A program made the position numbers and the translations under genes. A stretch of 27,380 nucleotides of DNA, taken from an uncultured Helicobacter sp. (GTDB lineage Bacteria; Campylobacterota; Campylobacteria; Campylobacterales; Helicobacteraceae). Shown piece by piece: positions 13,629-14,148 of the stretch (its first letter is position 1; the number at the start of each line of letters is the position of its first letter). The notes under the pieces are model-generated. The model was not told the origin of the DNA, made no database searches, and was given only the letters and a program-made list of their open reading frames with translations. The stretch covers positions 1 to 27,380 of the forward strand of contig CASFZH010000035.1 of NCBI GenBank assembly GCA_949299115.1. The letters are read 5' to 3'.

Positions 13629-13907
13629 GTGGCAACGACATTAATGCAAGTCAGACGTGATGAGAATCTAAAAAAAGAAACAGATATGCTTTTTAATGAA
13701 TTGTGGTTTGATACCACTACAGCAGTGAGAATATTTTTAAAAGCCACTATTAAAGAACAAGGTTTGCCCTTTAAGGTGCAAAGCAAAAAAGAGTATAAGC
13801 AAGAAAGAGGAGGCATTTTAAGCCCAGAGAATATCAAGATTCTCTTAGAGGATTACAAAAAGTTTGAAAGTCGTGAGGGTTTTGTAAAGGAACTCTTTGA
13901 TGAATAA
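13629..13907 (+). CDS. RelB/DinJ-family type II antitoxin
   Basis: GTG start with RBS AAGGAG 7 nt upstream. The 92-aa product VRRDENLKKETDMLFNELWFDTTTAVRIFLKATIKEQGLPF aligns with DinJ (VRIDEDLKNQAADVL...VRITLTKVAREKALPF). The stop overlaps the start of the toxin ORF (ATGAATAA). Confidence 0.75.
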   Translation: MATTLMQVRRDENLKKETDMLFNELWFDTTTAVRIFLKATIKEQGLPFKVQSKKEYKQERGGILSPENIKILLEDYKKFESREGFVKELFDE

Positions 13908-14148
13908 GGTATTTTGGGAGATAGCATGGGAACAATATTGCTATTGGCAGGAGTAATGATAAAAAATCCTTAAAAGAATTAATATGTTACTTAAAAATAT
14001 TGAGAAAAATGGCACATTACATGAAATAGGGAAACCAGAAGCACTAACAAGAAATTTAAACGGATTGTATTCAAGACGTATAAATAATGAGCATAGATTG
14101 ACAAATCTTTGTATCGTCGTTTGTAAAACGCACTATGGAGAAAAATAG
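13900..14148 (+). pseudogene. YoeB/Txe-family (RelE/ParE superfamily) toxin gene interrupted by three consecutive in-frame stop codons
   Basis: One frame reads MNKVFWEIAWEQYCYWQE-TAA-TGA-TAA-KILKRINMLLKNIEKNGTLHEIGKPEALTRNLNGLYSRRINNEHRLTNLCIVVCKTHYGEK. It aligns without gaps to E. coli YoeB (MKLIWSEESWDDYLYWQETDKRIVKKINELIKDTRRTPFEGKGKPEPLKHNLSGFWSRRITEEHRL...CRYHY), with the three stops (13954-13962) sitting exactly where T-D-K sits. Confidence 0.7.

Follow-up and report, generated by a model that had tools for sequence, protein, structure and literature searches.

A triple in-frame stop in a decayed yoeB toxin gene of an uncultured Helicobacter is best explained by two nearby single-nucleotide indels

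Results

An open antitoxin gene precedes a YoeB-family toxin remnant

The window analyzed here, a stretch of 27,380 nucleotides (ENA metagenome scaffold ERZ16268055 scaffold_1827), carries a gene pair in which a relB/dinJ-family antitoxin gene runs into a toxin pseudogene of the Txe/YoeB family, the stop of the first overlapping the start of the second by 8 nt (ATGAATAA; Table 1). The DNA comes from an uncultured enterohepatic Helicobacter; the biotin carboxylase encoded in the window shares a 90%-identity cluster with proteins of H. bilis, H. trogontum, and H. aurati, to which the host is close.

Read in a single frame, the toxin gene translates as MNKVFWEIAWEQYCYWQE, three consecutive stops, KILKRINMLLKNIEKNGTLHEIGKPEALTRNLNGLYSRRINNEHRLTNLCIVVCKTHYGEK, and a final stop (KILKRINMLL...CKTHYGEK after the three stops). 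With its stops at codons 19-21, it has no uninterrupted ORF of the approximately 84-88 codons that characterize Txe/YoeB. When the stops are replaced by sense residues, the remnant matches PF06769 YoeB_toxin (E 5.5e-23; 81.2 bits against a cut-off of 27) and TIGR02116 Txe/YoeB (62.2 bits against a cut-off of 51.8), and its best relatives of solved structure are S. aureus YoeB (6L8E, E 1e-20) and E. coli YoeB (2A6Q, E 4e-17). Translation and both models thus bear out an earlier note, made from the sequence alone, which had reported an in-frame TAA TGA TAA in a YoeB-family gene.

We compared the remnant with the toxins of intact Helicobacter modules, namely P0001 (on L011-L016), the toxin of L104, P0002 (on L017), and the toxin of L106. 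These are open, 87-88 aa long and 61-74% identical to the remnant over aligned residues, the closest, annotated "uncultured Helicobacter sp.", at about 72-74%. They differ from the remnant in having Y/H-D-K at the stop site and the VYYTD strand further downstream, and they share with it the gene pair and the 8-nt overlap. Residues E47, R59/R60, H65-R66, and H84-Y85 (P0001 numbering) are invariant in the alignment, window remnant included. The catalytic-region residues of Txe/YoeB, which we take to be Glu46, Arg65, His83, and Tyr84 in E. coli numbering, lie downstream of the stops, so that their translation is not expected.

The antitoxin matches RelB/DinJ-type models only (TIGR02384, 58.2 bits against 45.65; PF04221, 25.1 bits against 22.4), the RelB/ParD model staying below its cut-off, and over its first 53 aa the protein can be aligned to DinJ (9lew, E 0.004). 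Its ORF is open in all samples examined; together with the two family models, this agrees with the earlier description of an intact RelB/DinJ antitoxin adjoining a blocked toxin. With a promoter-like site and an inverted repeat upstream and a terminator-like hairpin downstream, the pair looks like a self-contained two-gene unit. In view of the way in which type II toxin-antitoxin (TA) modules commonly regulate themselves, the site and the repeat could act as promoter and operator.

Table 1. Features of the antitoxin-toxin locus (positions in the window)
Feature	Position	Strand	Remarks
11-nt inverted repeat	13568-13578 / 13599-13609		overlaps promoter-like site; candidate operator
Promoter-like site TTATCA-18-TATATT	13582..13611	+	consensus match; such sites no commoner than in shuffled sequence
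relB/dinJ-family antitoxin gene, intact	13629..13907	+	92 aa; GTG start; AAGGAG 5 nt upstream
14-nt string GAGGAGGCATTTTA, antitoxin linker	13807..13820	+	shared with L012 in another frame; DNA alignment and translations
yoeB (Txe/YoeB family) pseudogene	13900..14148	+	start overlaps antitoxin stop, 8 nt
TAA TGA TAA	13954..13962	+	Y/H-D-K position of relatives; helix 1 / helix 2 junction
Putative 1-nt insertion	13955..13956	+	one A of the two would be extra (TAT to TAAT); relatives TAT/CAT/CAC and edit distance
A6 run, putatively A7 in the ancestor	13961..13966	+	1-nt loss would restore frame; relatives GAY AAR AAR ATT
54-aa ORF, C-terminal leftover of the toxin	13984..14148	+	YoeB fragment according to gene callers
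Polymorphic 1-nt deletion	14069..14069	+	samples L098-L102; remnant then ends ...NLNGLFQDV and a stop
Junction of 18-nt in-frame deletion	14099..14100	+	VYYTD(T) after EHRL missing
Terminator-like hairpin and T-rich stretch	14293..14309	+	before HAD phosphatase gene; 2 sites versus 0.2 expected (shuffled)

The toxin remnant carries further lesions

The earlier note had aligned the toxin gene to YoeB without gaps, which does not hold, as six codons are missing after EHRL relative to the closest relatives and to the solved YoeB structures. What stands is that the sequence is YoeB-like on both sides of the stops, in the same frame and with the catalytic-region residues kept. None of the 84 homologues has a gap in the stretch after EHRL, so the deletion is unique among 85 sequences, and measured against 6L8E, 2A6Q, and the closest relatives the six-residue gap leaves the beta-sheet core incomplete. 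The 18-nt deletion is predicted to take out most of a core beta-strand, which spans residues 65-71 in an AlphaFold model of P0001 (low confidence, pLDDT 58; 2-sequence alignment) that we used solely for the order of secondary-structure elements. The assignment of the deleted stretch to a core strand presumably matches the E. coli YoeB crystal structure as well.

The polymorphic deletion at 14069 defines a second haplotype, present in 5 of 21 samples together with antitoxin F48L. All three SNPs of the toxin (W10R, K25T, and R26I) are nonsynonymous. Since synonymous sites are saturated between lineages, we used nonsynonymous distances only in place of dN/dS; the distances to the outgroup toxins are 0.28 and 0.31 for the remnant and 0.26 and 0.31 for the intact L012 toxin. 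Judged by these distances, the toxin appears to have died recently relative to the lineage split, and such a recent death explains why the remnant is still YoeB-like. Neutral decay is going on, as seen in the fixed 18-nt deletion, the polymorphic deletion at 14069, and the three nonsynonymous SNPs.

The antitoxin carries changes of its own. The 14-nt string GAGGAGGCATTTTA reads RGGIL in the window antitoxin versus EEAFY in L012, and the stretch appears from this comparison to be the scar of a compensated frameshift. An F-Y motif that is kept in five relatives has been lost from the window antitoxin through the frameshifted stretch, and the otherwise invariant LGLDT motif reads LWFDT (G26W, L27F). 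Of the C-terminal part, in which toxin binding is expected, the last ~22 residues are conserved with L012, and the linker holds the frameshifted stretch. Among samples, the antitoxin varies at 13679 (synonymous) and at 13770 (F48L, conservative). Few as they are, these SNPs and those of the toxin agree with a decaying toxin beside a retained antitoxin.

The same nine bases recur in every sample that covers the site

The earlier note had listed a laboratory or assembly artefact among its alternatives, to which a sequencing error can be added; apart from a superficial likeness of the nine bases TAATGATAA to an engineered stop cassette, nothing speaks for any of these. Using the exact antitoxin protein, its F48L variant, and the neighboring HAD protein, we gathered 26 loci from 22 samples; the records are ENA scaffold and Logan assemblies as well as k87-type contigs. 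The string TGGCAGGAGTAATGATAAAAAATC is present in 25 of the 25 loci that cover the site, from 21 samples and all three kinds of assembly record, which agree with one another while differing in linked SNPs. The nine bases are identical in these 25 loci, whose linked SNPs or indels form at least seven backgrounds. To the extent that assemblies can tell, an artefact is excluded, since the same nine bases stand in all 21 independent samples on several SNP backgrounds; we give this alternative virtually no credence.

The 9-mer also stops one frame only, and in this AT-rich DNA it is no rarity: it is found at three further places in the window, giving four copies versus 1.75 expected. Counting from the ORF starts, two of these copies, at 9588 and 12732, fall within intact genes and are there read off-frame as N-D-K/N. 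An engineered stop cassette was rejected as an explanation, and so was an alternative genetic code, the neighboring genes being long open ORFs under table 11.

The gene pair lies within an invertible, phase-variable cassette

The TA module is located within a 4.2-kb segment (11862-16096) between 39-nt inverted repeats (11862-11900 and 16058-16096, 90% complementary), which sit inside copies of TupA-like ATP-grasp genes. We compared the segment in L113, L005, and L002. L113 is an exact inversion of the window arrangement, and in L005 the inversion is joined to a third C-terminal cassette of ~0.98 kb that is absent from the window. Through inversion, the ATP-grasp protein exchanges its C-terminal ~150 aa, and its versions are identical up to ...NENHNFH and then strongly divergent. 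No recombinase gene was found in the window.

A second source of variation is a poly-G tract (11256-11267) in the same TupA-like ATP-grasp gene; how long the tract is determines whether the ORF is fused or split. It is G12 in the window, where the ORF is split into 118 + 307 aa, and elsewhere G14 or G11, with a fused ORF of 470 or 469 aa, or G13, which is again split; the behavior resembles classical homopolymer phase variation. Just upstream of the tract, L098 and L100 have a C-rich garbage sequence that is probably a sequencing error. Two further frameshift polymorphisms of the segment were seen in individual samples: in L098 and L103, the CobD/HisC-like PLP enzyme (window-equivalent 12334-13500) is split into 221 + 178 aa, and in L009, the ATP-grasp gene is split by a 10-nt tandem duplication, TATACATAAT (window-equivalent ~11960).

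The gene set at 11401-14983 comprises a TupA-like ATP-grasp protein, a CobD-like PLP-dependent enzyme, whose best match is threonine-phosphate decarboxylase below the family cut-off, and an HAD-IB phosphatase, and is preceded by SIS-domain and ManC-like genes. By analogy, this set may resemble the glucuronamide-forming enzymes Cj1438, Cj1437, and Cj1435 of the C. jejuni HS:2 capsule, which amidate glucuronic acid with ethanolamine or serinol (PMC11800379).

Two 1-nt indels suffice for the triple stop

How could three adjacent stops arise while the frame around them is preserved? At the stop site, the window reads TAA TGA TAA AAA ATC. The corresponding codons are TAT GAC AAA AAG ATT in L012 and L104, CAT GAT AAG AAG ATT in L017, and CAC GAC AAG AAA ATT in L106, so that 4 of 4 intact relatives encode [Y/H]-D-K-K-I. 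The alignment with homologues that the earlier note had proposed as a check therefore finds sense codons at the site in all four intact relatives and a region that is YoeB-like. We enumerated all synonymous codings of [Y/H]DKKI as possible ancestors and computed the edit distance of each to the window string. The minimum is two edits, from TAT GAT AAA AAA ATC, versus a minimum of five within nine bases when the same enumeration is limited to substitutions.

The triple stop is best explained by two 1-nt indels nine bases apart in a decayed TA pair, an origin that we consider very probable. An A would have been inserted after TA in codon 19, turning TAT into TAAT, and one A would have been lost from an A7 run nine bases further downstream. 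Within the stretch bounded by the two indels, the ancestral ..T GAT AAA.. would be read one base out of register; in that register a TGA and a TAA would have pre-existed off-frame, and the inserted A would make the first TAA. Past the second indel the original frame would resume, which is why the rest is still YoeB-like. Each indel by itself would inactivate the toxin, so the return to frame would be coincidental and needs no selective explanation.

Such hidden stops are frequent at this site. The same off-frame TGA TAA is present in L017, and among the 84 homologues at least one off-frame stop occurs at the site in 59 and both in 5. AT-rich bacteria are known to have dense off-frame stops (PMC5909447, PMC3700767), and as off-frame TAA and TGA are abundant in an AT-rich genome, a nearby +1/-1 indel pair yields consecutive stops. 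Indels are also frequent in the neighborhood of the site, as shown by the compensated frameshift in the antitoxin, the variable poly-G tract, the 10-nt duplication, and the split aminotransferase. Two of the 84 YoeB homologues, both from other genomes in the L018-L097 family sample, likewise have a stop at one of these three codons, following QD in one and preceding DK in the other.

The alternative is that three adjacent sense codons were each turned into a stop by point substitution, with no indel involved. It accounts for a length across the site that is the same as in the relatives and for the single frame on both sides, and it is how the earlier note had seen the site, as a very unusual route of decay that takes several substitutions and no frameshift. 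From any Y/H-D-K ancestor, however, nine bases would have to take at least five changes, and the Asp codon would be hit at every position, whereas two indels give the same result in DNA that is rich in indels. We regard the substitution route as very improbable, and neither part of the earlier reading survives: two 1-nt indels are enough, and the gain of an A followed by the loss of another from an A7 run exposes stops that were already there.

We infer the exact ancestral codons (GAT, AAA AAA, ATC) and the order of the two-indel events rather than observing them, since no relative was found that is closer than about 72% amino-acid identity; the proposed ancestor differs from the closest relatives at three synonymous positions. 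Among the alleles recovered, none is a one-indel intermediate. A single complex mutation and two separate indels leave the same footprint and cannot be told apart. A templated mutation or gene conversion would call for a donor of the 20-mer that spans the stops, and the window has no second copy of it.

A toxin product is unlikely to be made from the remnant

The earlier note had also considered that a toxin might still be produced, through readthrough or as a 54-aa fragment by reinitiation at ATG 13984; a full-length protein made by recoding is a further conceivable route. An open 54-aa ORF is found in 16 of 21 samples and keeps the GKPE, SRRI, EHRL, and THY motifs, and the +1 frame between the two indels reads N-D-K, near the family consensus x-D-K. 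Against this stand the six core-strand residues that are absent from every allele and kept in 84 of 84 homologues, the frameshift at 14069 inside the fragment in five samples, and remnant SNPs that are all nonsynonymous. On reading the sequence, no Shine-Dalgarno-like (AGGA-like) motif was found upstream of 13984. The claim that the fragment keeps the RNase core thus fails, as the beta-strand is mostly deleted, and a functional reinitiation fragment is unlikely, given the missing Shine-Dalgarno-like motif, the loss of the core strand, and the frameshift in part of the population.

To make a full-length protein, the ribosome would have to shift by +1 at GAG-UAA-U and by -1 on the A run, or else read through three stops. 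As for the A run, six residues are few for efficient slippage, which counts against this route. In the four close relatives the site consists of plain sense codons, so that there is no conserved recoding site, and no Rfam element is present in 13300-14500; with disabling lesions downstream in addition, neither recoding nor readthrough finds support. Toxin expression by +1/-1 double recoding is very unlikely given the 18-nt deletion and the 14069 allele, and for continued use of the toxin by any of these routes we see only a slim chance.

Discussion

At this locus the YoeB toxin gene has recently been pseudogenized and the "orphan" antitoxin kept. The pattern is a known one, a recognizable, lesioned toxin remnant beside an open antitoxin gene. 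Orphan antitoxins are mostly remnants of degraded TA loci (PMC7354431, section 4.2), and antitoxins kept beside a toxin remnant have been described in a survey of the Klebsiella pneumoniae complex (PMC7354431) and in E. coli lineages (PMC10790755). Nothing essential sets the window locus apart from these degraded loci, and only the appearance of three adjacent stops is unusual. Loss of the toxin first should be harmless and loss of the antitoxin first lethal, and the retained antitoxin, which is presumably still made, fits this expectation.

From the family assignments, the ancestral module would have been a chromosomal type II TA system that combined a RelB/DinJ-type antitoxin with a YoeB-type toxin, a ribosome-dependent mRNase. 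The remnant resembles E. coli YefM-YoeB (2A6Q), S. aureus YoeB (6L8E), and E. faecium Axe-Txe in being a PF06769 / TIGR02116 toxin with a nearly full-length alignment, in the placement of GKPE, SRRI, EHRL, and the C-terminal H-Y, and in a gene order with the antitoxin first and its stop overlapping the toxin start. Unlike working YoeB members, it has three stops and lacks six beta-strand residues, and unlike YefM-YoeB, the window antitoxin is of the RelB/DinJ type (ribbon-helix-helix) and not Phd/YefM. The pairing of RelB/DinJ with YoeB recurs in every Helicobacter relative that was found and so belongs to the clade rather than to this locus. The N-terminal domain of the antitoxin is similar to that in DinJ-YafQ and RelB-RelE (9lew, TIGR02384), the window partner being YoeB rather than YafQ or RelE. 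The toxins YoeB, YafQ, and RelE share the RelE-superfamily fold.

Several searches define how close the available relatives are. Searching the toxin against one genome per species gave 80 loci (L018-L097), none above 61% identity and none from Helicobacter, and so no closer ancestor was obtained; we reused these loci as the family sample for the counts of off-frame stops and gaps. In a plasmid collection, only distant Clostridium and cyanobacterial YefM-YoeB at 70-75% were found, where YoeB is paired with Phd/YefM. Scans of JGI metagenomes for the conserved antitoxin-toxin junction and for degenerate EQYCYWQE+TA DNA patterns returned zero matches, and protein word-index searches returned only two toxin and four antitoxin relatives.

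The proposed pair of indels is similar to compensated frameshifts described previously, in which closely spaced +1 and -1 indels enclose a short out-of-register stretch (PMC5909447, PMC3700767). Unlike in those cases, nothing is rescued here, since the shifted stretch consists of stops only.

What keeps the antitoxin gene open? In addition to the two-indel origin of the stops, and not in competition with it, the antitoxin may have been selected for a new role once the toxin was dead, either in anti-addiction against an incoming or paralogous YoeB or as a ribbon-helix-helix regulator in the invertible glycan cassette. The gene is intact in all samples with one synonymous and one conservative change, versus four lesions in the toxin remnant; a strong Shine-Dalgarno sequence, the promoter-like site, and the operator-like repeat are retained; and new roles have been proposed for orphan antitoxins (PMC7354431, PMC10790755). 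In the sister lineage, too, pieces of TupA-like genes surround the intact module. On the other hand, the SNPs are too few to test for selection, the samples were found by an exact match to the antitoxin or HAD protein, so that broken-antitoxin alleles could be missed, the antitoxin has lost the F-Y motif and carries G26W and L27F in LGLDT, and the window has no second copy of YoeB. The gene may simply have escaped decay so far. We consider selection for a new role unlikely, and that selection inside the cassette keeps the antitoxin as an anti-addiction factor or cassette regulator, beside a dead toxin, is doubtful.

The position of the module is shared with a second lineage, as the P0001 module is likewise placed between pieces of TupA-like ATP-grasp genes. 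Upstream of the P0001 module, the flanks differ between loci, with an argininosuccinate synthase gene and a 125-aa fragment in L011 and a sigma-54 gene and a 418-aa gene in L012, which suggests rearrangement at TupA-like genes in that lineage too.

In conclusion, the decay of yoeB in this Helicobacter is one more case of a chromosomal TA module that lost its toxin first, and is of small importance in itself. It does call for caution, as a run of in-frame stops in a well-aligned gene may look engineered or selected, and wherever these assemblies annotate a 54-aa "YoeB_toxin", it is best regarded as a pseudogene fragment. More than yoeB, the invertible, phase-variable ATP-grasp cassette is the part of the window that is worth closer study. 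If the antitoxin is indeed kept by selection inside this cassette, the association of relB-yoeB with TupA-like genes in two Helicobacter lineages would point to an original role of the module in stabilizing a recombining segment.
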